Assembly (NCBI RefSeq): GCF_002214165.1
Contig: NZ_CP019964.1
Location: 570,001 to 602,000, forward strand
DNA from: Candidatus Saccharimonadota bacterium
GTDB lineage: Archaea; Micrarchaeota; Micrarchaeia; Micrarchaeales; Micrarchaeaceae
Direction: 5' to 3'
DNA: 32,000 nt
In this document: piece by piece, positions 10,976 through 27,269 of the stretch
Position numbering within the stretch: position 1 is the stretch's first letter
How the letters are laid out: the number at the start of each line of letters is the position of its first letter
The notes under the pieces: generated by a model
The model's database searches: none
The model's input: only the letters and a program-made list of their open reading frames with translations
What the model was told of the DNA's origin: nothing
Position numbers and translations under genes: made by a program

Positions 10976-11040
10976 AACTTCAGATAGCTATAAATGCGAT
11001 TTAGTCAAAATTCATGGCCTTCCGGCATCTCTACAAAACC

Positions 11041-11064
11041 AATTTAGTTTACCTTAACTAAATT
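11041..11064. repeat. perfect 9-bp inverted repeat (AATTTAGTT-N6-AACTAAATT)
   Basis: Seen directly, 66 nt downstream of the methyltransferase stop. Function unknown; it could be a terminator-like hairpin or a binding site. Confidence 0.5.
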
Positions 11065-11303
11065 TATATTGTCATAGTGCAGCTCTCACTAAATATATAT
11101 ATCGCACCATATTCCAAACTATAAGGGAACTTTTAACCAAAAGCTAAATCGCCATTTTTACCATGCTCTTGCATAAGCAGGAACCTTCCGTGTTTTATAT
11201 TTTTAAGTCACATCTTTATCCAATCACCAAGAATAATATTGGCAGGTTTTTACTATCGAAAGATAAATATTTAAGAATCTGACTTCGTAAGTAATATGAT
11301 ACA

Positions 11304-12203
11304 ATGAAGTCCCAATCCGCAATGGAATACCTGATGACATACGGATGGGCAATCCTCATAATTGCAATCGTACTTGCTGCATTATACTCTATAGGAATCT
11401 TCAACCCAAACACATTTGCCCCAAAAGCATCTGCAGGATCATGCGAGGTTGTCAGGCCTTCAGGTCCAGGGACGACTAGCGATCTGGGCCTTGAGGGGAC
11501 ATGCACCAACATGCTTCCAAAATACGTCAGCGTTTTCAATGGCCAAAATATATATGCAAATGCTAATTTAAGCAGGGTATTTAAGGACGAAGGGCAGCCT
11601 TTCACTATAACTATATGGCGATATAATGAAAAAGGGACAGATTGCGAGGATAGTGAATTGAGGTTAACCTCAAATGGTCATTCATTATTTAGAGCTGGGT
11701 TATCAGGAACCGGTGGACTTGATAGTTTTCCTGCAAATGATGAAGAAATGTTTGAACTTTGGAATAATAGCGGTTCACAGTATAATTACTTCGGAAATAA
11801 AAGCACAAACTTAAACACGTGGTACTTTTTGACATTTACATATAATGGAAGCTATGTAAAAGCATATATTGACGGAAATCCGGATTTGAACGAAGACTTT
11901 GGCAAGACTAACACCGGAGGAAATATAATCAGGTTCGGCACAGATTTAGGCACTGGGTGCAATGATTTATTTGACGGGATGATGGCAAATGTGCAGATAT
12001 ACAATACGGCCTTATCCACCGGCCAAGTGGAACATCTTTACCAGGAAGGTATAGGCGGAGACCCTATTGATCTCACGCATCTTGTCGGATGGTGGCCGTT
12101 TAATGGCAATGCGAATGACTATTCTGGAAATGATTATGATGGTAAAGTATCCGGTACAATAGGTTATTCCTCAACCTGGTATACGGCATACTCTGCACCA
12201 TAA
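11304..12203 (+). CDS. class III signal peptide (type IV pilin-like) + LamG/ConA-like domain protein, core type A
   Basis: The N-terminus MKSQSAMEYLMTYGWAILIIAIVLAALY is a short polar leader, a QSAME motif and a hydrophobic helix, which is the archaeal class III signal. LamG_3 hallmark strands are FTITIWRYN, NTWYFLTFTYNGSYVKAYIDGNP and GMMANVQIYNTALSTGQVEHLY. It carries the family C-module ...GGDPIDLTHLVGWWPFNGNANDYSGN...YSAP. Confidence 0.85.
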   Translation: MKSQSAMEYLMTYGWAILIIAIVLAALYSIGIFNPNTFAPKASAGSCEVVRPSGPGTTSDLGLEGTCTNMLPKYVSVFNGQNIYANANLSRVFKDEGQPFTITIWRYNEKGTDCEDSELRLTSNGHSLFRAGLSGTGGLDSFPANDEEMFELWNNSGSQYNYFGNKSTNLNTWYFLTFTYNGSYVKAYIDGNPDLNEDFGKTNTGGNIIRFGTDLGTGCNDLFDGMMANVQIYNTALSTGQVEHLYQEGIGGDPIDLTHLVGWWPFNGNANDYSGNDYDGKVSGTIGYSSTWYTAYSAP

Positions 12204-12232
12204 ACCAATTAAATTAACATTTTGATAAACTG

Positions 12233-12265
12233 CTAATTGACAAAAATGTAAAAATAGTCAATTAG
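12233..12265. repeat. perfect 9-bp inverted repeat (CTAATTGAC-N15-GTCAATTAG)
   Basis: Seen directly in the gap between the type A LamG gene and the ATPase gene. It could act as a terminator or an operator. Confidence 0.5.
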
Positions 12266-12307
12266 TAATAGTTTATTTTAAATATTTTAGCATTTATAAT
12301 TATATGT

Positions 12308-13570
12308 ATGAACATCGAGAACGCTATACTAAGGTATAAAGATTATGGCAAAGGCGTAAAGTTGATAGATAGAGATGCAACTTTATCAAAAGCCAATTTT
12401 ATTAACTCCCTAATTGGTCCTAGAAGAGCAGGTAAAAGTTCAATAATGCTATTGTATATGAATGAACTGCGCAAAGAAAACAAAAAAGTCATTTTTATAA
12501 ATGGCGAAGATATAGATTTTGAAGGCTTGACTGTAGAGGGTTTAGATAAAATAGAAATTGAGATAAGGCGCATATACGATATAAGTTCACAAGAAAAAGT
12601 ATACTTGTTCATAGACGAGATTCAAAATTTTCCTTATTGGTCAAAATGGGTAAGGACATTGTTTGATGAAAATTATTATAATCTAATTATATCTGGATCA
12701 ACTTCGGAATTATCGGGAGAACAATTGCCAATACAACTCAGGGGAAGATCAATAGAAACATTAGTGCTGCCTTTTTCTTTCAAGGAATACTGCAAAGCAA
12801 AGCATATAAATTATGAAAAATATATGAATTTTGAGGATACTGCGTCAATATTAAATGCATTTTCAGATTTTATGCTATATGGAGGATATCCCGAGGTTGT
12901 AAAATCAGATGATACCGAATTCAAGAAACAGATACTATCAAACATATATACTATGGTCATGCAAAAAGATCTCATAGATAAATATAATATAAGGAAAAAA
13001 GCGGAATTTAGATTGTTCACAAATTCATTATTTGCATCTGCATGCAGAAATTTTTCAATAGAAAATATGCTGAAATTTTTAAGCAGTAAGGAATTAAATA
13101 TTAGTAGACAAGCAGCCTTGAACTACCTAGACTATTCAGAGTCTGTATTTTTAATACATCTAATTTACCCGTATTCTAAAAAGCTAAAGGTGCGCCTTAC
13201 CAACCCCCGCATCTATCCAATTGATCAGGGCATCATGAGATTATTTACCAATGATGATGGGAAATCACTAGAAGATATAGCATTCATAGAGTTGTTCAGG
13301 AGAAAGGAAAATGTAATGTATTACAAGTCAAATAAAAGCGATGTTGATTTCGCCGTTGTAGAAAGTGACGAGATAAAAGAACTGATACAGGTTAGCTATT
13401 CTATAGATGAACCTAATGCTTATATTAGGGAGACAGATTCATTGAAAAATGCGTCCAAAGAAACAGGGTGCACAAACTTAAAGATTCTAACTTTTAATGA
13501 AGAGAGTGTAATAAAGATAGAAAATTTATCAATCAATGTTATCCCTGTATGGAAATGGCTTTTGAGTTAA
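12308..13570 (+). CDS. AAA_14 / DUF4143-family ATPase (COG1373-like)
   Basis: Walker A GPRRAGKSS and Walker B LFIDEIQNFPYW, with the typical 400-aa-class architecture and a C-terminal DUF4143-like region (FIELFRR...DFAV). Confidence 0.8.
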   Translation: MNIENAILRYKDYGKGVKLIDRDATLSKANFINSLIGPRRAGKSSIMLLYMNELRKENKKVIFINGEDIDFEGLTVEGLDKIEIEIRRIYDISSQEKVYLFIDEIQNFPYWSKWVRTLFDENYYNLIISGSTSELSGEQLPIQLRGRSIETLVLPFSFKEYCKAKHINYEKYMNFEDTASILNAFSDFMLYGGYPEVVKSDDTEFKKQILSNIYTMVMQKDLIDKYNIRKKAEFRLFTNSLFASACRNFSIENMLKFLSSKELNISRQAALNYLDYSESVFLIHLIYPYSKKLKVRLTNPRIYPIDQGIMRLFTNDDGKSLEDIAFIELFRRKENVMYYKSNKSDVDFAVVESDEIKELIQVSYSIDEPNAYIRETDSLKNASKETGCTNLKILTFNEESVIKIENLSINVIPVWKWLLS

Positions 13571-13630
13571 CTCTTCTGTAATCCTATGTATAATGTTTAT
13601 AAATTTTTATAACAAAACAATTCTGATATA

Positions 13631-14491
13631 ATGAAGTCCCAATCCGCAATGGAATACCTGATGACATACGGATGGGCGATCCTTGTCATTGCAATTGTCC
13701 TTGCAGCACTTTATTCTTTAGGTATATTCAATCCAAGCACATTTGCTCCAAAAGCATCCGCAGGTTCCTGCGAGGTTGTACGACCTTTCGGTCCAACCAC
13801 AAGTACTGATGTTCATCTTGAGGGAACGTGCACCAACATGCTTCCTAAATATGTTGCAAGTTTCAATGGAGCTGATAGTGGCATAACAATAAGTTCACCA
13901 TCTGAATTTCCTGCCAGTTCTGAGCCAGGAATAAGTATTTTTGTTTGGATAAAAACAACAAGATCTAGCGAGGGTGTGTTTGAGTACTATTCCCCGTCAA
14001 ACAATATATGTGAAGGTAGTGTAAGATTAGAAGTATCCCCTAAACTACAAGCAGATTTTTCATGTGATGCTATATCTAATGGACCAGTGTTAGACAACAA
14101 CACTTGGAATTTTGTTGGTTGGACTCTTAAGAGCGGTACATCTAAGGTAATACTTTATGTAAATGGAATACCATATGGTCCATATCAAATTACCCCAATC
14201 AACGTTCCCACAACTGGCTTAGAAGGGTTAATAGGTGCTCCATATCCTGGTTGGCCATATTATTATGGTTCAATGTCAAATGTTCAACTTTACAACACAG
14301 CTCTTTCATCAAATCAAATTACTGCTCTTTACGATGAAGGTATCGGAGGTGATCCAATTGATTTACAAAATCTTGTTGGCTGGTGGCCACTTAATGGCAA
14401 TTCAAACGACTATTCTGGGAATAATAACAACGGAAAAGCAACAAATATCGCATATTCATCAACTTGGTACAGAACATATTCCGCACCTTAA
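13631..14491 (+). CDS. class III signal peptide + LamG/ConA-like domain protein, core type B (array copy 1)
   Basis: Same N-module (MKSQSAMEYLMTYGWAILVIAIVLAALY...EGTCTNMLPKYVA). LamG strands ISIFVWIKTT, NTWNFVGWTLKSGTSKVILYVNGIP and GSMSNVQLYNTALSSNQITALY. C-module ends ...YSAP. It differs from copies 2-4 by I22V and S57T. Confidence 0.85.
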   Translation: MKSQSAMEYLMTYGWAILVIAIVLAALYSLGIFNPSTFAPKASAGSCEVVRPFGPTTSTDVHLEGTCTNMLPKYVASFNGADSGITISSPSEFPASSEPGISIFVWIKTTRSSEGVFEYYSPSNNICEGSVRLEVSPKLQADFSCDAISNGPVLDNNTWNFVGWTLKSGTSKVILYVNGIPYGPYQITPINVPTTGLEGLIGAPYPGWPYYYGSMSNVQLYNTALSSNQITALYDEGIGGDPIDLQNLVGWWPLNGNSNDYSGNNNNGKATNIAYSSTWYRTYSAP

Positions 14492-14590
14492 TTAATCAGA
14501 AAATTAAATCCAATAAAGTTTCGATTAATGGTACTGCCAAATAATTTTCAATATTCAATTATAGTACTCACGGAATTCAATTAATAAGGT

Positions 14591-14619
14591 ATAAATATCT
14601 TTATCCATAAATATCTTTA
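14591..14619 (+). promoter_or_regulatory. tandem 13-bp direct repeat ATAAATATCTTTA-tcc-ATAAATATCTTTA abutting the MNT start; putative TATA box plus operator
   Basis: Seen directly. The first ATAAATAT lies at -31..-24 and the second at -15..-8 relative to the ATG at 14622. The downstream protein has an RHH-like N-terminus that could bind such repeats. Confidence 0.45.
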
Positions 14620-14621
14620 AT

Positions 14622-15122
14622 ATGAACACTAAAGTTTATATTGACGATAAATTAGCCGAAAAGTGGAAAGAGCTAGCAATGAAACGCTTTGGGTATGGTA
14701 GAGGCTCAATAAGCAAAGCTGCGGAGGAAGCTCTATCAATGTGGGTAGAGAAAGAGCAAATAGTAACAACCGCATTTGAAAAGCTTAAAGAAGCCGCAAT
14801 AGGTGAAAAGAATATATTAGCACTTCTTCTATTTGGAAGCTATGCAAGAAAAGAACCTTATCATGATATTGATATTGCAATAGTAATCGAAAGTAATGCA
14901 GATAAACTAAAAGTCTTATCTATTATTGAAAGTTCTGTACCTGAAGAACCCAGATTTGATTTTTCCATATTCAACGATATGCCAATGAATATGAAAAGCA
15001 GAGTACTCAACGAATGTATAGTGATATACAACAGAAAGGATTATGATCTAAAAGAGGTAAGTTCTGATATAATAATCAAATGGTCCGATATAAAGCCTAT
15101 TATTGATTCTGCACTGGTGTAA
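14622..15122 (+). CDS. minimal nucleotidyltransferase (MntA-type antitoxin) with N-terminal ribbon-helix-helix-like extension
   Basis: NTase motif LLLFGSYARKEPYHDIDIAIVI (GS...DxD). The N-terminal 45 aa or so (KVYIDDKLAEKWKELAMKRFGYGRGSISKAAEEALSMWVEKE) have a strand-helix-loop-helix RHH pattern. The stop lies 2 nt before the HEPN gene. Confidence 0.8.
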   Translation: MNTKVYIDDKLAEKWKELAMKRFGYGRGSISKAAEEALSMWVEKEQIVTTAFEKLKEAAIGEKNILALLLFGSYARKEPYHDIDIAIVIESNADKLKVLSIIESSVPEEPRFDFSIFNDMPMNMKSRVLNECIVIYNRKDYDLKEVSSDIIIKWSDIKPIIDSALV

Positions 15123-15124
15123 GC

Positions 15125-15544
15125 ATGATTGATACGGAGCGTATTGTTAGAAGACTTGCAGATATAAAGCATTATTCTAATGTATTAAGCAAAATAGTTC
15201 CCAACAATTATGATGATTATATAAAATCGGACATCACCACCAAGGCTGCTGTTGAAAGATATTTACAACTAATAAATGATTTGGAGTTGGAGGTACTTGT
15301 ACTCGCATACAAAGGTCTTGATTTAGGCATATCTGGAGGTGATGATTCACTTGTAAATAAATTTAACGATCTACTCAGTAAAAAAGCAATAGAGGGATTT
15401 AAAAAAAGAAGATCGCTGAGAAACATATTAGTACACGCTTATTTTGAAATGCATTACGACAAGGACACTTTCAATCAGGCAAACGATCTCAGCGATATTA
15501 AAGATTTTGTAAAAGGCATAAGATTAATTTTGGAAAAGCAATAA
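15125..15544 (+). CDS. HEPN-domain (DUF86/HepT-type) toxin
   Basis: 139 aa and helical. The C-proximal RRSLRNILVHAYFEM contains the Rx4HxY HEPN RNase motif. It forms an operon with the upstream MNT. Confidence 0.8.
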   Translation: MIDTERIVRRLADIKHYSNVLSKIVPNNYDDYIKSDITTKAAVERYLQLINDLELEVLVLAYKGLDLGISGGDDSLVNKFNDLLSKKAIEGFKKRRSLRNILVHAYFEMHYDKDTFNQANDLSDIKDFVKGIRLILEKQ

Positions 15545-15570
15545 TTTAATTCACAAAACAAAATTAAAGT

Positions 15571-15604
15571 TTAAATAATTTTATAACATAACAATTCTGA
15601 TATA
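15571..15604 (+). promoter_or_regulatory. conserved upstream block of the LamG paralogs (TTAAATAA..TTTATAACA[A/T]AACAATTCTGATATA-ATG)
   Basis: TTTATAACA[A/T]AACAATTCTGATATA directly abuts the ATG of the genes at 13631, 15605, 17579, 19553, 21527, 22461 and 23392. A shorter ATATGATA[T/C]A-ATG version precedes 11304 and 26409. TATA-like boxes lie within about 35 nt of the ATG and there is no purine-rich SD, which suggests leaderless or very short-leader mRNAs. Confidence 0.45.
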
Positions 15605-16465
15605 ATGAAGTCCCAATCCGCAATGGAATACCTGATGACATACGGATGGGCAATCCTTGTCATTGCGGTTGTTCTTGCAGCATTATACTCTTTAGGTATA
15701 TTCAATCCAAGCACATTTGCTCCAAAAGCATCCGCAGGTTCCTGCGAGGTTGTACGACCTTTCGGTCCAACTACAACAACGGATGTTCATCTTGAGGGAA
15801 CGTGCACCAACATGCTTCCTAAATATGTTGCAAGTTTCAATGGAGCTGATAGTGGCATAACAATAAGTTCACCATCTGAATTTCCTGCCAGTTCTGAGCC
15901 AGGAATAAGTATTTTTGTTTGGATAAAAACAACAAGATCTAGCGAGGGTGTGTTTGAGTACTATTCCCCGTCAAACAATATATGTGAAGGTAGTGTAAGA
16001 TTAGAAGTATCCCCTAAACTACAAGCAGATTTTTCATGTGATGCTATATCTAATGGACCAGTGTTAGACAACAACACTTGGAATTTTGTTGGTTGGACTC
16101 TTAAGAGCGGTACATCTAAGGTAATACTTTATGTAAATGGAATACCATATGGTCCATATCAAATTACCCCAATCAACGTTCCCACAACTGGCTTAGAAGG
16201 GTTAATAGGTGCTCCATATCCTGGTTGGCCATATTATTATGGTTCAATGTCAAATGTTCAACTTTACAACACAGCTCTTTCATCAAATCAAATTACTGCT
16301 CTTTACGATGAAGGTATCGGAGGTGATCCAATTGATTTACAAAATCTTGTTGGCTGGTGGCCACTTAATGGCAATTCAAACGACTATTCTGGGAATAATA
16401 ACAACGGAAAAGCAACAAATATCGCATATTCATCAACTTGGTACAGAACATATTCCGCACCTTAA
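15605..16465 (+). CDS. class III signal peptide + LamG/ConA-like domain protein, core type B (array copy 2)
   Basis: Protein identical to copies 3 and 4. Motifs as for 13631..14491. Confidence 0.85.
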   Translation: MKSQSAMEYLMTYGWAILVIAVVLAALYSLGIFNPSTFAPKASAGSCEVVRPFGPTTTTDVHLEGTCTNMLPKYVASFNGADSGITISSPSEFPASSEPGISIFVWIKTTRSSEGVFEYYSPSNNICEGSVRLEVSPKLQADFSCDAISNGPVLDNNTWNFVGWTLKSGTSKVILYVNGIPYGPYQITPINVPTTGLEGLIGAPYPGWPYYYGSMSNVQLYNTALSSNQITALYDEGIGGDPIDLQNLVGWWPLNGNSNDYSGNNNNGKATNIAYSSTWYRTYSAP

Positions 16466-16564
16466 TTAATCAGAAAATTAAATCCAATAAAGTTTCGATT
16501 AATGGTACTGCCAAATAATTTTCAATATTCAATTATAGTACTCACGGAATTCAATTAATAAGGT

Positions 16565-16593
16565 ATAAATATCTTTATCCATAAATATCTTTA
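16565..16593 (+). promoter_or_regulatory. tandem 13-bp direct repeat upstream of MNT (copy 2)
   Basis: Same sequence as 14591..14619, shifted by 1974 bp. Confidence 0.45.
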
Positions 16594-16595
16594 AT

Positions 16596-17096
16596 ATGAA
16601 CACTAAAGTTTATATTGACGATAAATTAGCCGAAAAGTGGAAAGAGCTAGCAATGAAACGCTTTGGGTATGGTAGAGGCTCAATAAGCAAAGCTGCGGAG
16701 GAAGCTCTATCAATGTGGGTAGAGAAAGAGCAAATAGTAACAACCGCATTTGAAAAGCTTAAAGAAGCCGCAATAGGTGAAAAGAATATATTAGCACTTC
16801 TTCTATTTGGAAGCTATGCAAGAAAAGAACCTTATCATGATATTGATATTGCAATAGTAATCGAAAGTAATGCAGATAAACTAAAAGTCTTATCTATTAT
16901 TGAAAGTTCTGTACCTGAAGAACCCAGATTTGATTTTTCCATATTCAACGATATGCCAATGAATATGAAAAGCAGAGTACTCAACGAATGTATAGTGATA
17001 TACAACAGAAAGGATTATGATCTAAAAGAGGTAAGTTCTGATATAATAATCAAATGGTCCGATATAAAGCCTATTATTGATTCTGCACTGGTGTAA
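16596..17096 (+). CDS. RHH-MNT nucleotidyltransferase antitoxin (copy 2)
   Basis: Protein identical to 14622..15122. Confidence 0.8.
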   Translation: MNTKVYIDDKLAEKWKELAMKRFGYGRGSISKAAEEALSMWVEKEQIVTTAFEKLKEAAIGEKNILALLLFGSYARKEPYHDIDIAIVIESNADKLKVLSIIESSVPEEPRFDFSIFNDMPMNMKSRVLNECIVIYNRKDYDLKEVSSDIIIKWSDIKPIIDSALV

Positions 17097-17098
17097 GC

Positions 17099-17518
17099 AT
17101 GATTGATACGGAGCGTATTGTTAGAAGACTTGCAGATATAAAGCATTATTCTAATGTATTAAGCAAAATAGTTCCCAACAATTATGATGATTATATAAAA
17201 TCGGACATCACCACCAAGGCTGCTGTTGAAAGATATTTACAACTAATAAATGATTTGGAGTTGGAGGTACTTGTACTCGCATACAAAGGTCTTGATTTAG
17301 GCATATCTGGAGGTGATGATTCACTTGTAAATAAATTTAACGATCTACTCAGTAAAAAAGCAATAGAGGGATTTAAAAAAAGAAGATCGCTGAGAAACAT
17401 ATTAGTACACGCTTATTTTGAAATGCATTACGACAAGGACACTTTCAATCAGGCAAACGATCTCAGCGATATTAAAGATTTTGTAAAAGGCATAAGATTA
17501 ATTTTGGAAAAGCAATAA
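17099..17518 (+). CDS. HEPN/HepT toxin (copy 2)
   Basis: Protein identical to 15125..15544. Confidence 0.8.
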   Translation: MIDTERIVRRLADIKHYSNVLSKIVPNNYDDYIKSDITTKAAVERYLQLINDLELEVLVLAYKGLDLGISGGDDSLVNKFNDLLSKKAIEGFKKRRSLRNILVHAYFEMHYDKDTFNQANDLSDIKDFVKGIRLILEKQ

Positions 17519-17578
17519 TTTAATTCACAAAACAAAATTAAAGTTTAAATAATTTTATAACATAACAATTCTGATATA

Positions 17579-18439
17579 ATGAAGTCCCAATCCGCAATGG
17601 AATACCTGATGACATACGGATGGGCAATCCTTGTCATTGCGGTTGTTCTTGCAGCATTATACTCTTTAGGTATATTCAATCCAAGCACATTTGCTCCAAA
17701 AGCATCCGCAGGTTCCTGCGAGGTTGTACGACCTTTCGGTCCAACTACAACAACGGATGTTCATCTTGAGGGAACGTGCACCAACATGCTTCCTAAATAT
17801 GTTGCAAGTTTCAATGGAGCTGATAGTGGCATAACAATAAGTTCACCATCTGAATTTCCTGCCAGTTCTGAGCCAGGAATAAGTATTTTTGTTTGGATAA
17901 AAACAACAAGATCTAGCGAGGGTGTGTTTGAGTACTATTCCCCGTCAAACAATATATGTGAAGGTAGTGTAAGATTAGAAGTATCCCCTAAACTACAAGC
18001 AGATTTTTCATGTGATGCTATATCTAATGGACCAGTGTTAGACAACAACACTTGGAATTTTGTTGGTTGGACTCTTAAGAGCGGTACATCTAAGGTAATA
18101 CTTTATGTAAATGGAATACCATATGGTCCATATCAAATTACCCCAATCAACGTTCCCACAACTGGCTTAGAAGGGTTAATAGGTGCTCCATATCCTGGTT
18201 GGCCATATTATTATGGTTCAATGTCAAATGTTCAACTTTACAACACAGCTCTTTCATCAAATCAAATTACTGCTCTTTACGATGAAGGTATCGGAGGTGA
18301 TCCAATTGATTTACAAAATCTTGTTGGCTGGTGGCCACTTAATGGCAATTCAAACGACTATTCTGGGAATAATAACAACGGAAAAGCAACAAATATCGCA
18401 TATTCATCAACTTGGTACAGAACATATTCCGCACCTTAA
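17579..18439 (+). CDS. class III signal peptide + LamG/ConA-like domain protein, core type B (array copy 3)
   Basis: Protein identical to copy 2. Confidence 0.85.
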   Translation: MKSQSAMEYLMTYGWAILVIAVVLAALYSLGIFNPSTFAPKASAGSCEVVRPFGPTTTTDVHLEGTCTNMLPKYVASFNGADSGITISSPSEFPASSEPGISIFVWIKTTRSSEGVFEYYSPSNNICEGSVRLEVSPKLQADFSCDAISNGPVLDNNTWNFVGWTLKSGTSKVILYVNGIPYGPYQITPINVPTTGLEGLIGAPYPGWPYYYGSMSNVQLYNTALSSNQITALYDEGIGGDPIDLQNLVGWWPLNGNSNDYSGNNNNGKATNIAYSSTWYRTYSAP

Positions 18440-18538
18440 TTAATCAGAAAATTAAATCCAATAAAGTTTCGATTAATGGTACTGCCAAATAATTTTCAAT
18501 ATTCAATTATAGTACTCACGGAATTCAATTAATAAGGT

Positions 18539-18567
18539 ATAAATATCTTTATCCATAAATATCTTTA
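18539..18567 (+). promoter_or_regulatory. tandem 13-bp direct repeat upstream of MNT (copy 3)
   Basis: Same sequence as 14591..14619, shifted by 2 x 1974 bp. Confidence 0.45.
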
Positions 18568-18569
18568 AT

Positions 18570-19070
18570 ATGAACACTAAAGTTTATATTGACGATAAAT
18601 TAGCCGAAAAGTGGAAAGAGCTAGCAATGAAACGCTTTGGGTATGGTAGAGGCTCAATAAGCAAAGCTGCGGAGGAAGCTCTATCAATGTGGGTAGAGAA
18701 AGAGCAAATAGTAACAACCGCATTTGAAAAGCTTAAAGAAGCCGCAATAGGTGAAAAGAATATATTAGCACTTCTTCTATTTGGAAGCTATGCAAGAAAA
18801 GAACCTTATCATGATATTGATATTGCAATAGTAATCGAAAGTAATGCAGATAAACTAAAAGTCTTATCTATTATTGAAAGTTCTGTACCTGAAGAACCCA
18901 GATTTGATTTTTCCATATTCAACGATATGCCAATGAATATGAAAAGCAGAGTACTCAACGAATGTATAGTGATATACAACAGAAAGGATTATGATCTAAA
19001 AGAGGTAAGTTCTGATATAATAATCAAATGGTCCGATATAAAGCCTATTATTGATTCTGCACTGGTGTAA
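18570..19070 (+). CDS. RHH-MNT nucleotidyltransferase antitoxin (copy 3)
   Basis: Protein identical to 14622..15122. Confidence 0.8.
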   Translation: MNTKVYIDDKLAEKWKELAMKRFGYGRGSISKAAEEALSMWVEKEQIVTTAFEKLKEAAIGEKNILALLLFGSYARKEPYHDIDIAIVIESNADKLKVLSIIESSVPEEPRFDFSIFNDMPMNMKSRVLNECIVIYNRKDYDLKEVSSDIIIKWSDIKPIIDSALV

Positions 19071-19072
19071 GC

Positions 19073-19492: not shown

Positions 19493-19552
19493 TTTAATTC
19501 ACAAAACAAAATTAAAGTTTAAATAATTTTATAACATAACAATTCTGATATA

Positions 19553-20413
19553 ATGAAGTCCCAATCCGCAATGGAATACCTGATGACATACGGATGGGCA
19601 ATCCTTGTCATTGCGGTTGTTCTTGCAGCATTATACTCTTTAGGTATATTCAATCCAAGCACATTTGCTCCAAAAGCATCCGCAGGTTCCTGCGAGGTTG
19701 TACGACCTTTCGGTCCAACTACAACAACGGATGTTCATCTTGAGGGAACGTGCACCAACATGCTTCCTAAATATGTTGCAAGTTTCAATGGAGCTGATAG
19801 TGGCATAACAATAAGTTCACCATCTGAATTTCCTGCCAGTTCTGAGCCAGGAATAAGTATTTTTGTTTGGATAAAAACAACAAGATCTAGCGAGGGTGTG
19901 TTTGAGTACTATTCCCCGTCAAACAATATATGTGAAGGTAGTGTAAGATTAGAAGTATCCCCTAAACTACAAGCAGATTTTTCATGTGATGCTATATCTA
20001 ATGGACCAGTGTTAGACAACAACACTTGGAATTTTGTTGGTTGGACTCTTAAGAGCGGTACATCTAAGGTAATACTTTATGTAAATGGAATACCATATGG
20101 TCCATATCAAATTACCCCAATCAACGTTCCCACAACTGGCTTAGAAGGGTTAATAGGTGCTCCATATCCTGGTTGGCCATATTATTATGGTTCAATGTCA
20201 AATGTTCAACTTTACAACACAGCTCTTTCATCAAATCAAATTACTGCTCTTTACGATGAAGGTATCGGAGGTGATCCAATTGATTTACAAAATCTTGTTG
20301 GCTGGTGGCCACTTAATGGCAATTCAAACGACTATTCTGGGAATAATAACAACGGAAAAGCAACAAATATCGCATATTCATCAACTTGGTACAGAACATA
20401 TTCCGCACCTTAA
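19553..20413 (+). CDS. class III signal peptide + LamG/ConA-like domain protein, core type B (array copy 4)
   Basis: Protein identical to copy 2. Confidence 0.85.
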   Translation: MKSQSAMEYLMTYGWAILVIAVVLAALYSLGIFNPSTFAPKASAGSCEVVRPFGPTTTTDVHLEGTCTNMLPKYVASFNGADSGITISSPSEFPASSEPGISIFVWIKTTRSSEGVFEYYSPSNNICEGSVRLEVSPKLQADFSCDAISNGPVLDNNTWNFVGWTLKSGTSKVILYVNGIPYGPYQITPINVPTTGLEGLIGAPYPGWPYYYGSMSNVQLYNTALSSNQITALYDEGIGGDPIDLQNLVGWWPLNGNSNDYSGNNNNGKATNIAYSSTWYRTYSAP

Positions 20414-20512
20414 TTAATCAGAAAATTAAATCCAATAAAGTTTCGATTAATGGTACTGCCAAATAATTTTCAATATTCAATTATAGTACTCACGGAATTC
20501 AATTAATAAGGT

Positions 20513-20541
20513 ATAAATATCTTTATCCATAAATATCTTTA
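20513..20541 (+). promoter_or_regulatory. tandem 13-bp direct repeat upstream of MNT (copy 4)
   Basis: Same sequence as 14591..14619, shifted by 3 x 1974 bp. Confidence 0.45.
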
Positions 20542-20543
20542 AT

Positions 20544-21044
20544 ATGAACACTAAAGTTTATATTGACGATAAATTAGCCGAAAAGTGGAAAGAGCTAGCA
20601 ATGAAACGCTTTGGGTATGGTAGAGGCTCAATAAGCAAAGCTGCGGAGGAAGCTCTATCAATGTGGGTAGAGAAAGAGCAAATAGTAACAACCGCATTTG
20701 AAAAGCTTAAAGAAGCCGCAATAGGTGAAAAGAATATATTAGCACTTCTTCTATTTGGAAGCTATGCAAGAAAAGAACCTTATCATGATATTGATATTGC
20801 AATAGTAATCGAAAGTAATGCAGATAAACTAAAAGTCTTATCTATTATTGAAAGTTCTGTACCTGAAGAACCCAGATTTGATTTTTCCATATTCAACGAT
20901 ATGCCAATGAATATGAAAAGCAGAGTACTCAACGAATGTATAGTGATATACAACAGAAAGGATTATGATCTAAAAGAGGTAAGTTCTGATATAATAATCA
21001 AATGGTCCGATATAAAGCCTATTATTGATTCTGCACTGGTGTAA
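20544..21044 (+). CDS. RHH-MNT nucleotidyltransferase antitoxin (copy 4)
   Basis: Protein identical to 14622..15122. Confidence 0.8.
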   Translation: MNTKVYIDDKLAEKWKELAMKRFGYGRGSISKAAEEALSMWVEKEQIVTTAFEKLKEAAIGEKNILALLLFGSYARKEPYHDIDIAIVIESNADKLKVLSIIESSVPEEPRFDFSIFNDMPMNMKSRVLNECIVIYNRKDYDLKEVSSDIIIKWSDIKPIIDSALV

Positions 21045-21046
21045 GC

Positions 21047-21466
21047 ATGATTGATACGGAGCGTATTGTTAGAAGACTTGCAGATATAAAGCATTATTCT
21101 AATGTATTAAGCAAAATAGTTCCCAACAATTATGATGATTATATAAAATCGGACATCACCACCAAGGCTGCTGTTGAAAGATATTTACAACTAATAAATG
21201 ATTTGGAGTTGGAGGTACTTGTACTCGCATACAAAGGTCTTGATTTAGGCATATCTGGAGGTGATGATTCACTTGTAAATAAATTTAACGATCTACTCAG
21301 TAAAAAAGCAATAGAGGGATTTAAAAAAAGAAGATCGCTGAGAAACATATTAGTACACGCTTATTTTGAAATGCATTACGACAAGGACACTTTCAATCAG
21401 GCAAACGATCTCAGCGATATTAAAGATTTTGTAAAAGGCATAAGATTAATTTTGGAAAAGCAATAA
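21047..21466 (+). CDS. HEPN/HepT toxin (copy 4)
   Basis: Protein identical to 15125..15544. Confidence 0.8.
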   Translation: MIDTERIVRRLADIKHYSNVLSKIVPNNYDDYIKSDITTKAAVERYLQLINDLELEVLVLAYKGLDLGISGGDDSLVNKFNDLLSKKAIEGFKKRRSLRNILVHAYFEMHYDKDTFNQANDLSDIKDFVKGIRLILEKQ

Positions 21467-21526
21467 TTTAATTCACAAAACAAAATTAAAGTTTAAATAA
21501 TTTTATAACATAACAATTCTGATATA

Positions 21527-22417
21527 ATGAAGTCCCAATCCGCAATGGAATACCTGATGACATACGGATGGGCAATCCTTGTCATTGCGGTTGTTCTTGC
21601 AGCATTATACTCTTTAGGTATATTCAATCCTTCTTCTTTTGCTCCAAAGGCATCGGCAGGATCCTGCGAAGTTGTAAGACCCTTCGGTCCAACCACAAGT
21701 ACTGATGTTCATCTTGAGGGAACGTGCACCAACATGCTTCCAAAGTATGTTGCAAGTTTAAATGGCAATGATGGTTACGTATATTCAAATATAAGCAGTT
21801 TACCAGAGGGTAAACAGCCAAGAACAGTTATTGTATGGTTTTATTTGACCGCTGAACCATCAACTAGTAATGGGCAATCTGCAATATTTGCTTATGGTAC
21901 TGCAAATACCTGCGATGAAACCTTTTGGGTTTCTGCAACAACACCAAGTTCTACTTGTGATAACAGTGAATTATTTATTGATAATTGGTGCACATGCCAA
22001 AGTTTTCCAGATGTCCCAACAATTAGTTTAGATCGTTGGTATTTTGTTGCAGACGAATATAATGGAACTTACCAGATTGGTTACTTAAGTGATAATGGTT
22101 CTATTATATCAATCAATTCGCAACAATTAGGAGTTAATACTGGAGAATCTCCTTTTTATATAGGTTACTGGACAGTGAGAGGATATTTTCCAGGCATGAT
22201 TGCCAATTTGCAAATATACAATAAATCCCTTTCATCAAATCAAATTAGTGCACTTTACGATGAAGGCATAGGCGGCGACCCAATCGACCTTACACATTTA
22301 GTTGCATGGTACCCCCTAAATGGCAATGCACAAGATTATTCAGGAAATAATTATAATGGAAAAGCATTCAATGTCTCATATTCCTCAACCTGGTACAGAA
22401 CATATTCCGCACCTTAA
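21527..22417 (+). CDS. class III signal peptide + LamG/ConA-like domain protein, core type C
   Basis: Same N-module; its first 104 nt are identical to array copies 2-4. The core is distinct (RTVIVWFYLT, DRWYFVADEYNGTYQIGYLSDNG, GMIANLQIYNKSLSSNQISALY). The C-module is ...DLTHLVAWYPLNGNAQDYSGNNYNGKAFNVSYSSTWYRTYSAP. Confidence 0.85.
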   Translation: MKSQSAMEYLMTYGWAILVIAVVLAALYSLGIFNPSSFAPKASAGSCEVVRPFGPTTSTDVHLEGTCTNMLPKYVASLNGNDGYVYSNISSLPEGKQPRTVIVWFYLTAEPSTSNGQSAIFAYGTANTCDETFWVSATTPSSTCDNSELFIDNWCTCQSFPDVPTISLDRWYFVADEYNGTYQIGYLSDNGSIISINSQQLGVNTGESPFYIGYWTVRGYFPGMIANLQIYNKSLSSNQISALYDEGIGGDPIDLTHLVAWYPLNGNAQDYSGNNYNGKAFNVSYSSTWYRTYSAP

Positions 22418-24143
22418 TAAATTAATTTTTAATACTTTATAACAAAACAATTCTGATATAATGAAGTCCCAATCCGCAATGGAGTACCTGATGACGTATG
22501 GATGGGCAATCCTTGTCATTGCAGTTGTTCTTGCAGCACTATATTCTCTCGGAATCTTCAATCCAAGCACTTTTGCCCCAAAAGCATCTGCAGGATCATG
22601 TGAGGTTGTCCGGCCTTTTGGTCCGACTACAACTACAGATATCCATCTTGAAGGCACCTGCACCAACATGCTTCCTAAATATGTAGCGCAGTTTAATGGA
22701 AAGGGAAGCACAGGGATAACACTTAACACATATAACTTCAACACTACACCGTTTACAATATCTTTCTGGGAATATTATTTAGGATATACCACTTGTTATA
22801 CATCTAGTAATGGGGGCAATTGCGGTGAAAATGTAACTATGTATATAAATCCTAATAAATGTAGCTCTACCCCTAATTATCTGTGTGTTATAGATTTTGA
22901 CCTTAGAACTACAAGCTTGCATTGGTTTACATGGGATAGGGATATTTTTTACCCAGTCCAAACTGGAAAATGGCTCTTTATTACATGGACTTATAACCCA
23001 GCAAATAAAAACAATATTTCTGCTTACTTAAATGGAAAGTTTGTTGGTGGAAATACAGGCAGCAATGTTGTGTTAGATGGACAAATAGAACTTGGAGAAG
23101 GCGGCAGTATGGGAAGCATAGATGGATATGTATCTAATTTCCAAATCTATAACTCCTCCCTTTCAGCAAATCAAATTAGTGCACTTTACGATGAAGGCAT
23201 AGGCGGCGACCCAATCGACCTTACACATTTAGTTGCATGGTACCCCCTAAATGGCAATGCACAAGATTATTCAGGAAATAATTATAATGGAAAAGCATTC
23301 AATGTCTCATATTCCTCAACCTGGTACAGAACATATTCCGCACCTTAATAAATTAATTTTTAATACTTTATAACAAAACAATTCTGATATAATGAAGTCC
23401 CAATCCGCAATGGAGTACCTGATGACGTATGGATGGGCAATCCTTGTCATTGCAGTTGTTCTTGCAGCACTATATTCTCTCGGAATCTTCAATCCAAGCA
23501 CTTTTGCCCCAAAAGCATCTGCAGGATCATGTGAGGTTGTCCGGCCTTTTGGTCCGACTACAACTACAGATATCCATCTTGAAGGCACCTGCACCAACAT
23601 GCTTCCTAAATATGTAGCGCAGTTTAATGGAAAGGGAAGCACAGGGATAACACTTAACACATATAACTTCAACACTACACCGTTTACAATATCTTTCTGG
23701 GAATATTATTTAGGATATACCACTTGTTATACATCTAGTAATGGGGGCAATTGCGGTGAAAATGTAACTATGTATATAAATCCTAATAAATGTAGCTCTA
23801 CCCCTAATTATCTGTGTGTTATAGATTTTGACCTTAGAACTACAAGCTTGCATTGGTTTACATGGGATAGGGATATTTTTTACCCAGTCCAAACTGGAAA
23901 ATGGCTCTTTATTACATGGACTTATAACCCAGCAAATAAAAACAATATTTCTGCTTACTTAAATGGAAAGTTTGTTGGTGGAAATACAGGCAGCAATGTT
24001 GTGTTAGATGGACAAATAGAACTTGGAGAAGGCGGCAGTATGGGAAGCATAGATGGATATGTATCTAATTTCCAAATCTATAACTCCTCCCTTTCAGCAA
24101 ATCAAATTAGTGCACTTTACGATGAAGGCATAGGCGGCGACCC
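22236..24143 (+). repeat. tandem duplication, 2 copies (plus about 40 bp of a third) of a 931-bp unit
   Basis: CAAATTAGTGCACTTTACGATGAAGGCATAGGCGGCGACCC recurs at 22241, 23172 and 24103 (spacing 931 bp). Gene starts 22461 and 23392 are also 931 bp apart. The unit runs from the 3' module of one LamG gene to the same point in the next. Confidence 0.9.
22461..23348 (+). CDS. class III signal peptide + LamG/ConA-like domain protein, core type D (copy 1)
   Basis: Same N-module but with many synonymous differences from type B and C genes. Core strands are FTISFWEYY, GKWLFITWTYNPANKNNISAYLNGKFV and GYVSNFQIYNSSLSANQISALY. The last 43 aa or so and the downstream spacer are identical to those of 21527..22417. 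Confidence 0.85.
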   Translation: MKSQSAMEYLMTYGWAILVIAVVLAALYSLGIFNPSTFAPKASAGSCEVVRPFGPTTTTDIHLEGTCTNMLPKYVAQFNGKGSTGITLNTYNFNTTPFTISFWEYYLGYTTCYTSSNGGNCGENVTMYINPNKCSSTPNYLCVIDFDLRTTSLHWFTWDRDIFYPVQTGKWLFITWTYNPANKNNISAYLNGKFVGGNTGSNVVLDGQIELGEGGSMGSIDGYVSNFQIYNSSLSANQISALYDEGIGGDPIDLTHLVAWYPLNGNAQDYSGNNYNGKAFNVSYSSTWYRTYSAP

Positions 24144-24279
24144 TATCGATTTAACGAATCTTGTAGGCTGGTGGCCATTGAACGGCAATGCAAACGACTA
24201 TTCAGGCAATGATTATAACGGTAAAGGGGTTGACGTAGGCTATTCACCAACATGGTACAGAACCTATTCAGCGCCTTAA
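23392..24279 (+). CDS. class III signal peptide + LamG/ConA-like domain protein, core type D (copy 2, different C-module variant)
   Basis: Identical to 22461..23348 until GGDPIDLT. It then switches to NLVGWWPLNGNANDYSGNDYNGKGVDVGYSPTWYRTYSAP. Confidence 0.85.
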   Translation: MKSQSAMEYLMTYGWAILVIAVVLAALYSLGIFNPSTFAPKASAGSCEVVRPFGPTTTTDIHLEGTCTNMLPKYVAQFNGKGSTGITLNTYNFNTTPFTISFWEYYLGYTTCYTSSNGGNCGENVTMYINPNKCSSTPNYLCVIDFDLRTTSLHWFTWDRDIFYPVQTGKWLFITWTYNPANKNNISAYLNGKFVGGNTGSNVVLDGQIELGEGGSMGSIDGYVSNFQIYNSSLSANQISALYDEGIGGDPIDLTNLVGWWPLNGNANDYSGNDYNGKGVDVGYSPTWYRTYSAP

Positions 24280-24430
24280 AGCAATCTCGAATCTTCATTT
24301 GAATGCATCGTTTACGATTTGCCTTTTTATCGATGCAATAGTTCACCAGCTGTTCACTATTAATTCCAATTATAAAAGCAGATCACGGCTCACATATCAC
24401 GAAATACAGCACAGGAATAAAAACAGTCCG

Positions 24431-26287
24431 CTAGTCATCATATCTTGATTTCCACTCGATGCTTTCAGAGCTCCAGAACTGCTTCATCCTCTCCAAGTAG
24501 TCTTTTCCTTCGTAAAGTGCGAAGAAGTTCTTTATGAGCATCTTGTAGTTCTTCCATTCATACCTGCTGTCCATGAATATTATGGAGGCTTTGTCGCTTT
24601 CGCTCCTTATCGCCCTGCCTGCAGCCTGTATAGCTCTTATGACAGCAGGGATAGTATAGATATATTCTATTCCGCTTTCATGGAATTTCTTGTTCATATA
24701 GTTTATCCTTGCCTGCAGTTCAAGGTCCGGCTTTGTTAAAGGTATGCCAACTATAACAATGCATTTTATTGAATTGTTGTCGTAGTTTATACCCTCGCTC
24801 AGGCTTCCCCCCATGACTCCTAGCATCAAGCCTTTCTTTGAGGCCTTGAACTCGTTTATCAGCCTCTCAACCTCTATATTGCTCATTGCCTTACGCTGTA
24901 TGAAGGCCTCGCTTATCCTGCCTAAATCAAGGTAGCGGTAGGTGCTTTCAAGCATGCTGAAGCTTGGGAAAAATACAGATGTGTTGCCTGGTATTGAAGA
25001 GTATATTCCATTTATCTTGGATGCGATTGACCTGTAGAGATCCGTGGTCCTGCCTGTGAACTTAGTGGACACCGTAGAGTCTATAGCAACAAACTGCTTG
25101 TCCTTCGAGAATGGTGATTTGTAGCTTTTTGTATCCGCTCCCTCCACTCCAAGTATATCCCTGTACATCTCCAAGGGTATAAGCGTGCCGCTCATGAAAA
25201 CATTTGCGTATGCTTCCTTGAATACCGAAAGCGCCCTTTCAGGGTAAAGATTGCTTAGCTTCAGCTCAACCCTGCCTCCGCCTCTTGCAATTATCCTTGT
25301 AGTGGCTGCGTCAGAAGATTCCCAACCCTGCAGGAATGACGCTATATGCATTAATGATGAACGCTTAGCATGCTTGTTCTCTATATACATCATTCCTGCC
25401 TTTTCCATATCCGAGATTATATCGCCAAGCATGTCCTTTTCCCCTGAAAGGAAATCAGACGAATCAACAAATGCCTCATTCTTTTCTATTGATAGCATTT
25501 TAGCTGCAAGCTTGTTCAATTCAAAGCTTAGGAAGCTAATGTCTATGTCGCTCGTTATCGCGGCTAGCTCTGCCGCCGCCCTGTTTATTACGTTCTCGGA
25601 TATTGAAGTGCTGAAATAGGAAACCGCCGAATTGAATATGTTGTGCGCTTCATCCCATATAATTATAGTATCAGATAAATCATGGGAAAGCTTTTTCAGG
25701 AAGGTCTCCTTGGTATAAGGATTTAGTATATGCGAATAGCCTGCTATTATTATATCAGCTTTCTTGGCAAACCTCATTGAGACCTCATAGGGGCACAGCC
25801 CTTCTTTGTAGGATTGGCTTAATATTGCATTATGCCCTTCAGAAAATGAATTTAGCATTTCGTAATCTCCGTCAAGGTCAAAATGCTTCAGCTTGTTGAA
25901 ATAAGGGCACTGATTCTTCTTTATGAGGTTCTCGCAGGCATTGTAGAAGGATGAGTCATAGATGTTGTTTACATCAGGGTTGATGCACATGTTCCTTTTG
26001 CCCACAACATCTACAAAGGATATTCCAAGGTTAAATTTTTGCTTCAACCCTCTGAGCACGTCTACCGCTATCCTATGCTGTGATATCTTTGGGGTTAGGA
26101 ACAGTATGTCCTTGTCATTCTTAATCGCATAGGTTATAGCTGCGCTTAATGAGGCATCTGTTTTTCCTATGCCTGTAGGCGCATTTATGAGGATGTCCTT
26201 CCCGTCCGAAAGAGAACTATATATATCTTTCATCATCTCTTTCTGGGATCCTCGTGCCTCGTCAAACCTAAATAAGAATTCTGTCAT
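24431..26287 (-). CDS. xpd: XPD/Rad3-family (DinG-like) Fe-S DNA helicase
   Basis: Motif I NAPTGIGKT and DEAH box IIWDEAHNI. Four Cys lie in the inserted Fe-S domain (NMCINP, NACENL, NQCPYF, GLCPYE). The C-terminal motif region is AIQAAGRAIRSESD. It is convergent with the preceding LamG gene. Confidence 0.85.
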   Translation of the reverse strand: MTEFLFRFDEARGSQKEMMKDIYSSLSDGKDILINAPTGIGKTDASLSAAITYAIKNDKDILFLTPKISQHRIAVDVLRGLKQKFNLGISFVDVVGKRNMCINPDVNNIYDSSFYNACENLIKKNQCPYFNKLKHFDLDGDYEMLNSFSEGHNAILSQSYKEGLCPYEVSMRFAKKADIIIAGYSHILNPYTKETFLKKLSHDLSDTIIIWDEAHNIFNSAVSYFSTSISENVINRAAAELAAITSDIDISFLSFELNKLAAKMLSIEKNEAFVDSSDFLSGEKDMLGDIISDMEKAGMMYIENKHAKRSSLMHIASFLQGWESSDAATTRIIARGGGRVELKLSNLYPERALSVFKEAYANVFMSGTLIPLEMYRDILGVEGADTKSYKSPFSKDKQFVAIDSTVSTKFTGRTTDLYRSIASKINGIYSSIPGNTSVFFPSFSMLESTYRYLDLGRISEAFIQRKAMSNIEVERLINEFKASKKGLMLGVMGGSLSEGINYDNNSIKCIVIVGIPLTKPDLELQARINYMNKKFHESGIEYIYTIPAVIRAIQAAGRAIRSESDKASIIFMDSRYEWKNYKMLIKNFFALYEGKDYLERMKQFWSSESIEWKSRYDD

Positions 26288-26408
26288 ATAAATCTAAAAC
26301 CTGCAATTACAGTTATCTTTCAAAGTATAAAAAGTTAAGTTATTCGGATTCTCAAACAGTTACAAAATCACCTTTTTAAACTTTATCTTAGAAAGAAGAT
26401 ATGATATA

Positions 26409-27269
26409 ATGAAGTCCCAATCCGCAATGGAATACCTGATGACGTATGGATGGGCAATCCTCATAATTGCAATCGTACTTGCTGCATTATACTCTATAGG
26501 AATATTCAACCCAAACACATTTGCCCCAAAAGCATCTGCAGGATCATGCGAGGTTGTCAGGCCTTCAGGTCCAGGGACGACAAGCAATCTTGGCCGTGAG
26601 GGAACATGCACCAACATGCTTCCTAAGTATGTTGCTTTATTCGATGGAAATGACAATTACATTACATCACCCATCCCTACCAATAAAACAGTTAATGTCT
26701 CTTTCAGCCTTTGGTATCAATCTGATAATTCCAATTACTTTGCACCCTTATTCCTGTTATCTCCCAATGGGGGAGACAATATTGGCTATGGGCTTTATCT
26801 ATCAGATAATGAATTCAATATATTAGAATCAAGCATAAGGTGGATATACACAAGCGAATACATAAACAGCTCAAGGTGGTACAACATAATATTCACCATC
26901 TCACCTGCAAGCGGCGGAGATGTAGTATACTCAATTTACTTAAACGGGAAGAGGTTATACGTTTCTGGTCCTGAATCCCCCTCCTACCGCCCAGCCGATG
27001 AAATGAGAATAGGGAATGATCCCGGAAACGGAGATTACTTAGAAGGAATGATGGCAAATATGCAGGTTTACAATATAGCGTTATCACAGGGCCAGGTCAA
27101 TGCACTTTACCAGGAAGGCATAGGAGGCGACCCGATTGACTTGACGCATTTAGTTGCTTGGTACCAATTGAATGGCAATGCAAACGACTATTCAGGCAAT
27201 GATTACAATGGCAATGCAATTAATGTAGAGTACTCATCAACTTGGTACAGGACCTATTCTGCACCTTAA
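26409..27269 (+). CDS. class III signal peptide + LamG/ConA-like domain protein, core type E
   Basis: The N-module variant (ILIIAIVLAALYSIGIFNPNTF...PSGPGTTS) is shared with 11304..12203. Core strands are VSFSLWYQS, SRWYNIIFTISPASGGDVVYSIYLNGKRL and GMMANMQVYNIALSQGQVNALY. C-module ends ...YSAP. Confidence 0.85.
   Translation: MKSQSAMEYLMTYGWAILIIAIVLAALYSIGIFNPNTFAPKASAGSCEVVRPSGPGTTSNLGREGTCTNMLPKYVALFDGNDNYITSPIPTNKTVNVSFSLWYQSDNSNYFAPLFLLSPNGGDNIGYGLYLSDNEFNILESSIRWIYTSEYINSSRWYNIIFTISPASGGDVVYSIYLNGKRLYVSGPESPSYRPADEMRIGNDPGNGDYLEGMMANMQVYNIALSQGQVNALYQEGIGGDPIDLTHLVAWYQLNGNANDYSGNDYNGNAINVEYSSTWYRTYSAP

Follow-up and report, generated by a model that had tools for sequence, protein, structure and literature searches.

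Streptococcus sanguinis PilC consists of a class III signal, a small pilin moiety, and a ConA-like lectin, and it binds glycans and mediates adhesion (PMC9934059, PMC8179133). Of the extra modules that bacterial modular pilins carry, PF13385 ranks within the 15 most frequent; its combination with IPR012902 is widespread, and the examples given for the 15 include bacteria of the Candidate Phyla Radiation (CPR) (PMC9934059, PMC8179133). In haloarchaea, TafC is a minor LamG-bearing subunit of Tat fimbriae: it is Tat-exported, it has a TafA-like N-domain, and donor-strand complementation has been proposed for it (bioRxiv 10.1101/2023.03.06.531322). A paper of 2017 reported a LamG expansion in Candidatus (Ca.) Mancarchaeum acidiphilum Mia14 and proposed a role for it in host-cell interaction (PMC5498576), and other DPANN papers name LamG/concanavalin proteins as candidate adhesins (PMC7414124, PMC11310336). 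In this study, a 32,000-nt stretch of contig NZ_CP019964.1 (positions 570,001 to 602,000 of the forward strand; hereafter the window) was analysed, and it carried nine LamG genes built as a constant N-terminal module (N-module), one of five cores, and a constant C-terminal module (C-module). The two modules recombine, the N-module is homogenised within a genome, the cores are old and individually conserved head types, and the products are probably pilin-like surface lectins.

Open reading frame (ORF) listing and translation confirmed all nine ORFs, each on the plus strand, where an earlier reading of the bare sequence (the original prediction) had placed them: (i) gene A (11304 to 12203, 299 aa, ASI13920), with a type I N-module, core A, the C-module, and a LamG_3 score of 53.9 bits; (ii) gene B1 (13631 to 14491, 286 aa, ASI13922), the first copy with core B, which differed from B2 to B4 by 11 nt, all of them within 13678 to 13807 in the N-module; (iii) gene B2 (15605 to 16465, 286 aa, ASI13925), whose N-module was a mosaic (nt 1 to 104 identical to gene C, and the remainder identical to B1 save a 4-nt patch), together with the identical B3 (17579 to 18439, ASI13928) and B4 (19553 to 20413, ASI13931); (iv) gene C (21527 to 22417, 296 aa, WP_088820199), with core C, which had 85% core identity to its orthologue in a sister species (L001; see below); (v) gene D1 (22461 to 23348, 295 aa, ASI13935), which joined a D core to the C-module of gene C (0 differences over 54 codons), and gene D2 (23392 to 24279, 295 aa, ASI13936), which shared N-module and core with D1 and had its own C-module (dS 1.9 versus D1); and (vi) gene E (26409 to 27269, 286 aa, ASI13938), with a type I N-module and core E, located past the XPD helicase gene. 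Nine genes are thus present as ORFs, but they amount to seven distinct sequences, as B2, B3, and B4 were identical and D1 and D2 differed in the C-module alone. All distinct proteins were exact matches to Ca. Mancarchaeum acidiphilum Mia14 entries annotated as 'LamG domain protein'. A tenth family gene (L083, 16219 to 17091, 290 aa), with a sixth head type 'F', was found ~650 bp past the right end of the window, after aS21 and EF-1beta.

Alignment of the nine proteins resolved an N-module of 76 aa, a core of ~130 to 165 aa, and a C-module of ~50 to 55 aa. All nine started with MKSQSAMEYLMTYGWAIL, near-identity ran on to ...EGTCTNMLPKYV, and C47 and C67 were invariant within the N-module. The cores fell into five mutually unalignable classes (A; B, four copies; C; D, two copies; and E), and the C-module was conserved in all nine proteins, with the C-terminal consensus G..[AS]N.Q.YN..LS..Q...LY[DQ]EGIGGDPIDL..LV.W[WY]..NGN..DYSGN...YS.TWY..YSAP-stop. 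A tblastn search of the window with both constant modules returned exactly nine N-modules and nine C-modules and no orphan copy of either, and the proposed arrangement of constant modules around five core classes was borne out by alignment and tblastn alike. Every copy had an even cysteine count and 1 to 5 N-glycosylation sequons, which would be expected of extracellular proteins.

Laminin_G_3 (PF13385) passed the Pfam gathering score in every copy (39.6 to 65.3 bits versus 27.6) with near full-model coverage, and a 110-sequence family profile matched carbohydrate-binding modules, tetanus-toxin Hc-N, and pentraxins among PDB sequences (4qvs, 5hon, and 4c1w). AlphaFold2 was run on two members, E and B; both models had an N-terminal helix at residues 3 to 30, a hairpin at about 46 to 52 and 60 to 66 (low to moderate confidence), a helix at 227 to 236, and a strand at 248 to 252, and in the E model the jelly roll scored above 80 in predicted local distance difference test (pLDDT) over the majority of its 10-residue blocks, with lower values in the B model. 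Foldseek comparison with the PDB retrieved pentraxin, PAPP-A LamG, LamG, and CBM40 domains (E down to 7e-9; target-normalised TM-score ≤0.68). The LamG/ConA-like fold of the original prediction was thus supported concordantly by Pfam, the PDB-sequence profile search, and AlphaFold2 plus Foldseek, and the models showed the predicted head as a LamG/pentraxin-like two-sheet jelly roll.

An apparent likeness of the C-tail motif LVGWWPLNG..DYSGN..NG to the first strands preceding canonical LamG_3 had suggested a circular permutation, for which no support was found. A C-module profile had no match among PDB sequences, the alignment of a profile of 24 permuted sequences (tail before head) to 4qvs/5hon began only at ..FNG, and a phmmer search of PDB sequences with a single permuted protein was uninformative. 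LVGWWPLNG..DYSG was also seen in a non-pilin Micrarchaeota LamG protein with a different N-terminus (L026, 1 to 1077, minus strand), where it followed LamG and led into an InlB B-repeat domain of divergent sequence; an inter-domain segment is therefore another setting in which the first half of the C-module occurs. Mutual information with average product correction over 198 sequences placed 8 of the 40 top pairs between N-module positions and residues 278/280, and no pair among these 40 joined the core to a module; the N–C signal was not used as contact evidence, because it is confounded by the lineage signal that both modules hold via concerted evolution (see below).

A genome scan yielded at least 499 relatives in Micrarchaeota metagenome-assembled genomes (MAGs). 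Among ~60 Micrarchaeota loci (roughly 80 fetched), 132 ORFs combined the helix, the hairpin, and the tail; they encoded 278 to 322 aa and often stood in arrays of 2 to 5. The N-module profile, searched against 1.84 billion representatives, matched 5159 clusters (50% identity) at E ≤1e-3 and 1262 at E ≤1e-10, and the best 150 matches were mostly 280 to 325 aa long. No relatives were found on viral contigs (IMG/VR).

The rates of nonsynonymous (dN) and synonymous (dS) substitution and their ratio omega were computed for each module by the Nei-Gojobori method. Between classes, the N-module had dN 0.01 to 0.11, dS 0.15 to 1.16, and omega 0.015 to 0.14; the C-module had dN 0.10 to 0.18, dS ≥1, and omega about 0.07 to 0.14; and the core had dN 0.8 to 1.06 with saturated dS. 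Across 198 Micrarchaeota sequences, median pairwise identity was 68% in the N-module, 28% in the core, and 67% in the C-module, with column entropies of 0.2 to 1.7, 2.4 to 3.6, and 0.5 to 1.9 bits, respectively. The same comparison was applied to orthologues of the E and C heads in the sister species (L001/L004, a Micrarchaeota MAG with ~82% nucleotide identity in the flanks): omega for N-module, core, and C-module was 0.097, 0.058, and 0.020 for E and 0.055, 0.086, and 0.075 for C, and four flanking housekeeping genes, taken as whole genes, had omega 0.026 to 0.053. The orthologous core values were near those of the housekeeping genes, and therefore the heads are old, individually conserved types; the distance between heads is ancient paralogy, and the contrast between modules is confined to old paralogues. 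The hypervariable core of the original prediction, diverging unlike its flanks, is accordingly wrong: orthologous E and C cores were ordinarily diverged, as were the flanks and the housekeeping genes. Purifying selection on the orthologous cores also led to the rejection of a diversity-generating or hypermutation mechanism. That module constancy is maintained at the protein level holds in part: omega of 0.015 to 0.14 with real dS speaks for it, but the N-module is also homogenised by gene conversion.

This homogenisation was apparent from nucleotide differences over the 228 nt of the N-module, which numbered 15 between A and E of Mia14, 47 between E and its own orthologue, and 21 between E and C of the sister species. 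A synonymous signature of AAG (K2), TCC (S5), and CTG (L10) was present in 7/7 Mia14 copies regardless of head, while 3/3 sister-species copies, again regardless of head, had AAA, TCT, and CTT. Gene conversion homogenises N-modules within a genome.

Two repeat structures recorded recombination at the modules. The first was a tandem array of four 1974-bp units (13631 to 21526, plus strand), each composed of a B gene, an MntA-like nucleotidyltransferase gene, and a HepT-like HEPN gene, with junctions within N-modules; units 2 to 4 had 0 mismatches among them, unit 1 had 11 mismatches that were limited to the N-module, and the first 104 nt of gene C were common to units 2 to 4. Such an array would be expected from unequal crossing-over between B and C N-modules plus a small conversion patch. 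The second was a duplication with a 931-bp period (22236 to 24143, plus strand) that spanned C-module, spacer, N-module, and D core and had its crossover zone at 23167 to 23212; the crossover is placed in the C-module because D1 and D2 were identical in N-module and core while D1 holds the C-module of gene C.

The gene order was SPP–[island: A, B x4, C, D x2]–XPD–E in Mia14 and SPP–E'–XPD–C', followed by a 30-codon orphan C-module, in the sister species, SPP denoting a gene of signal peptide peptidase type (see below). The N-module of E was of type I in Mia14, while in the sister species E lay on the opposite side of XPD and its N-module was of type II, and the site after EF-1beta held different heads with a different N-module type in these two genomes. 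Populations 89 to 96% identical at nucleotide level displayed further arrangements: in L085 (~95% identical) the N-module joined to the A head (94.6% aa identity) was of type II, versus type I in Mia14, and a D gene stood before A, and the other orders were D–new head–XPD and new head–D. The conserved modules serve as homology arms and crossover sites, and the heads proved interchangeable as proposed, since among close relatives one and the same head was joined to differing N-module variants and occupied differing sites on the chromosome. The orphan C-module 3' end of the sister species (L001, 14785 to 14878, NTNYYSGNQNNGKEYNIGYSSTWYRTYSAP-stop) lay downstream of the C-type gene, in non-coding DNA rich in AT, and is the scar of a past deletion or rearrangement.

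The N-terminus was examined in 135 Micrarchaeota sequences, which had been selected with a motif that itself required Q at +1. Conservation set in sharply at Q+1, with the demanded Q (near-)invariant and E at +5; position -2 was K or R in 122/135 (90%), position -1 was S in 49, A in 36, L in 35, and G in 2, and QSAMEYLMT was identical in 119/135 sequences phylum-wide. The N-terminus had no match among PDB sequences. From motif logic, the modelled helix at 3 to 30, context, and literature, it was accepted as pilin-like, its best reading being a putative class III-type signal with an atypical -1 residue. Part of the helix motif recurred in Micrarchaeota proteins of 158 to 178 aa that were beta-rich and Ser/Thr-rich and had no hairpin, LamG, or tail; the motif was Q-less or full SAMEYLMTYGW in L053/L048 and more diverged in L027/L034, and in L048 one such gene was situated 52 bp downstream of a family member. 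These short proteins look like ordinary pilins.

Taken together, the family probably represents archaeal type IV pilin-like surface lectins that the DPANN symbiont Ca. Mancarchaeum acidiphilum uses for attachment; we infer ligand binding, prepilin-type processing, filament or surface display, and host binding. A very short basic leader (M-K-S) is followed by the near-invariant QSAMEYLMTYGW... hydrophobic helix, the single FlaK/PibD-type prepilin peptidase of the cell, the homologue MIA14_0570, would cleave before Q, and the processed helix would act as a pilin alpha-1 helix in membrane extraction or filament packing. Beyond it come a Cys-Cys hairpin, which is conserved, then a single LamG_3 jelly-roll head, and a conserved ~50-aa tail ending ...YSAP. 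Each head would bind a different ligand, probably glycans of the wall-less Cuniculiplasma host or of the biofilm matrix, and a shared role in assembly or docking would keep N- and C-modules alike across heads. Unequal crossing-over and conversion at the modules amplify units (B x4 and D x2) and swap modules between heads, and such recombination reshuffles which heads a strain carries and where. As a speculative extension, to which we give only a modest chance, the hairpin and the C-terminal tail could form a universal docking or polymerisation module that takes any LamG head, with recombination giving strain-specific repertoires of host-binding heads that set host range and the specificity of attachment in DPANN symbioses.

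Several observations weigh against this reading: (i) PF04021 and NCBIfam class III signal and pilin profiles gave nothing at E ≤10, with whole proteins and with the isolated N-module, and the class III signal of the original prediction is thus not recovered by profile; (ii) residue -1 is S/A/L instead of the canonical G or A; (iii) no pilus ATPase, platform, or peptidase gene was present in the window, and no pilus gene recurred among 761 neighbouring ORFs in the ~60 loci, clustering of which gave only further family members and housekeeping genes, with one T2SSE ATPase 8.5 kb from a family member and without operon link; (iv) the last 30 residues had ~30 pLDDT in the E and B models, though they are among the best conserved of the family; and (v) JGI 3300024473 and GCA_027353625 (short-read, near-identical assemblies) each held one B unit and one D gene. 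As for (iii), window scans agreed with the original prediction that the machinery lies elsewhere, and PMC5498576 counts two loci for type IV pili and a single FlaK-like peptidase in the Mia14 genome and describes some LamG genes as linked to pilus loci. As for (v), outside the constant modules the two assemblies agreed with the window without any mismatch, and their variant pattern was that of a collapsed de Bruijn assembly; the Mia14 genome is closed (952,257 bp) and was finished at 42-fold coverage. The copy numbers B x4 and D x2 derive only from this finished assembly; they are plausible but could be assembly-dependent.

The best surviving alternative, on the unlikely side, is that the proteins are surface-displayed lectins with a class III-type signal and not pilus subunits, which, like the sugar-binding proteins of the Sulfolobus 'bindosome', would be processed by the prepilin peptidase, reside at the membrane/S-layer or in a short pseudopilus, and perhaps capture carbohydrate or grip the host membrane directly. 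Sulfolobus bindosome proteins reportedly carry class III signals. The N-terminal features fit this alternative equally well, the genes are scattered among housekeeping genes without pilus-gene linkage, the many paralogues per genome exceed the usual number of minor pilins, and the substrate range of PibD is broad (quoted in PMC4858521). However, a helix that is near-invariant phylum-wide exceeds the needs of a membrane anchor, pilin-sized proteins share it, and pili-like ARMAN–Thermoplasmatales cell connections (ARMAN, archaeal Richmond Mine acidophilic nanoorganisms) have been reported (cited in PMC5498576). Quite improbable is a second alternative, in which the proteins are ordinary Sec-dependent type II membrane or secreted proteins, with a helix that serves as a normal signal peptide or as a signal-anchor left uncleaved and a likeness to pilins that is coincidental: the negative PF04021/NCBIfam pilin scans and L at -1 in 35/135 sequences, which is poor for prepilin peptidases, agree with it, but the leader has only ~3 residues, one of them basic, with neither n-h-c organisation nor an AxA site, Q+1 is precisely where conservation starts and E stands at +5, and the hydrophobic stretch was modelled as a single long helix (3 to 30). 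Antigenic- or phase-variation cassettes of the Neisseria pilE/pilS kind, with one expressed copy and the others as donors, can be dismissed almost entirely, for although the constant flanks do recombine and modules are exchanged, all copies are complete ORFs, each equipped with a start codon, a putative signal, and a TATA-like element of its own, truncated or promoter-less cassettes are absent from the window, cores are stable between species (omega 0.06 to 0.09), and the Pfam search of the submitted window ORFs turned up neither an invertase nor a reverse transcriptase.

The TATA-like element was TTTATAA at 15580 to 15586 (plus strand), 25 nt upstream of the B2 ATG, and it recurred at 13606, 17554, 19528, 21502, 22436, and 23367, so that each B, C, and D gene had it 25 nt before its ATG; A and E had other A/T-rich elements, at -41 and -35. 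Its position suggests independent, near-leaderless transcription from putative promoters, and by these features the family copies appear to be real genes and not silent cassettes. The role in surface variation raised by the original prediction is unlikely, as is one in antigenic variation, because every copy is a full gene with such an element of its own.

The family locus forms part of a variable island (7557 to 24430) that extends from the SPP-like gene to XPD. Eight of the nine family genes lie in it, along with genes for TnpB, an FtsJ-like methyltransferase, and an AAA_14/DUF4143 ATPase; at this site the sister species carries just one gene, of E type. GC content was ~0.32 to 0.38 in the island versus ~0.40 to 0.48 in the flanks, and PMC5498576 likewise places the LamG locus on a genomic island. 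Just upstream of the family locus was a gene for a presenilin/SPP-type intramembrane aspartyl protease (6588 to 7556); its sister-species counterpart (L001, 8971 to 9945) lay 55 bp from a family gene, and SPP was not a recurrent neighbour in other loci. This GxGD-type protease, instead of the FlaK-like peptidase, may be a candidate processor of the Q+1 signal.

At the left edge of the island, which measures ~17 kb and is absent from the sister species, was TnpB (IS200/IS605 OrfB, Cas12f-like; 8121 to 9368), flanked by ORFs of 136 aa (7664 to 8074) and 87 aa (9472 to 9735) without family matches; no Rfam RNA family (e.g., guide RNA) or tRNA gene was detected in the window. Directly upstream of A, the island encoded a methyltransferase of 411 aa (9740 to 10975) that was FtsJ-like (RlmM/TlyA-like) and in which a THUMP-like region was weakly recognisable. 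The ATPase with AAA_14 and DUF4143 (12308 to 13570) lay between A and B1, strongly matched the PADLOC candidate defence family PDC-S01 at 296.7 bits, and was kept beside the A gene in the related population L085. Within the first B unit (14622 to 15544, plus strand), the MntA-like antitoxin gene (14622 to 15122; Pfam Polbeta/NTP_transf_2) and the HepT-like toxin gene (15125 to 15544; Pfam HepT-like) had weak NCBIfam MntA and HepT matches, with further copies at +1974, +3948, and +5922; this pair is a co-amplified passenger outside the family. A 23-bp direct repeat (~2.1 copies, ATTTTGGAAAAGCAATAAATTA) was present at 15504 to 15551, 17478 to 17525, 19452 to 19499, and 21426 to 21473, where it covered the HepT 3' end and the spacer, 54 to 100 nt upstream of the next family gene, and could have a regulatory role.

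Mia14–Cuniculiplasma is among the few cultured pairs in which DPANN host recognition and attachment can be approached, and the family supplies candidates for this purpose: a defined head set (at least six types in the strain), a shared anchor and tail for tagging or pull-downs, and natural head–anchor recombinants. The heads are stable specificities and not hypervariable, an advantage when ligands are to be identified. Neither the genes nor the general interpretation of them is new, because the expansion and its presumed adhesive role had already been published, and the advance lies therefore in anatomy and evolutionary mechanism and not in gene discovery; the portions of PMC5498576, PMC7414124, and PMC11310336 available do not describe the pilin-like N-terminus, the tripartite conservation, the purifying selection on each head, the concerted evolution, or the module recombination.

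Compared to known systems, the LamG/concanavalin-type DPANN proteins (arCOG07813), including the Mia14 LamG expansion, are the same genes (PMC5498576, PMC7414124, PMC11310336). Neisseria pilE/pilS resembles the family in that conserved segments beside variable pilin sequence are substrates of homologous recombination, but there silent, promoter-less partial cassettes feed one locus at a fast rate, while here complete genes carry stable heads. TafC is an archaeal filament subunit with a polymerisation domain and, at the C-terminus, a putative adhesin domain that is laminin-G-like; unlike the family, it is Tat-dependent and encoded by a single gene in the taf operon, and NCBIfam TafC (NF052521) scored 12.8 to 31.9 bits against the family versus a cut-off of 410, with the LamG part alone aligning. 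In function, bacterial modular lectin pilins come closest to the family: they too have a hydrophobic helix ahead of a ConA-like/LamG_3 jelly roll, and their class III-type signal would be a further shared feature. Such LamG modular pilins occur in CPR episymbionts among other bacteria, and the parallel suggests that the use of lectin pilins among ultrasmall symbionts is either convergent or shared. The family differs from these pilins in four respects: (i) it has the archaeal Q at +1 with S/A/L at -1, and the bacterial N-methylation motif does not recognise it; (ii) a two-strand hairpin replaces the pilin beta-domain; (iii) its strongly conserved ~50-aa C-terminal tail has no counterpart in PilC; and (iv) it consists of many scattered and tandem recombining paralogues, in contrast to one gene in a pil operon.

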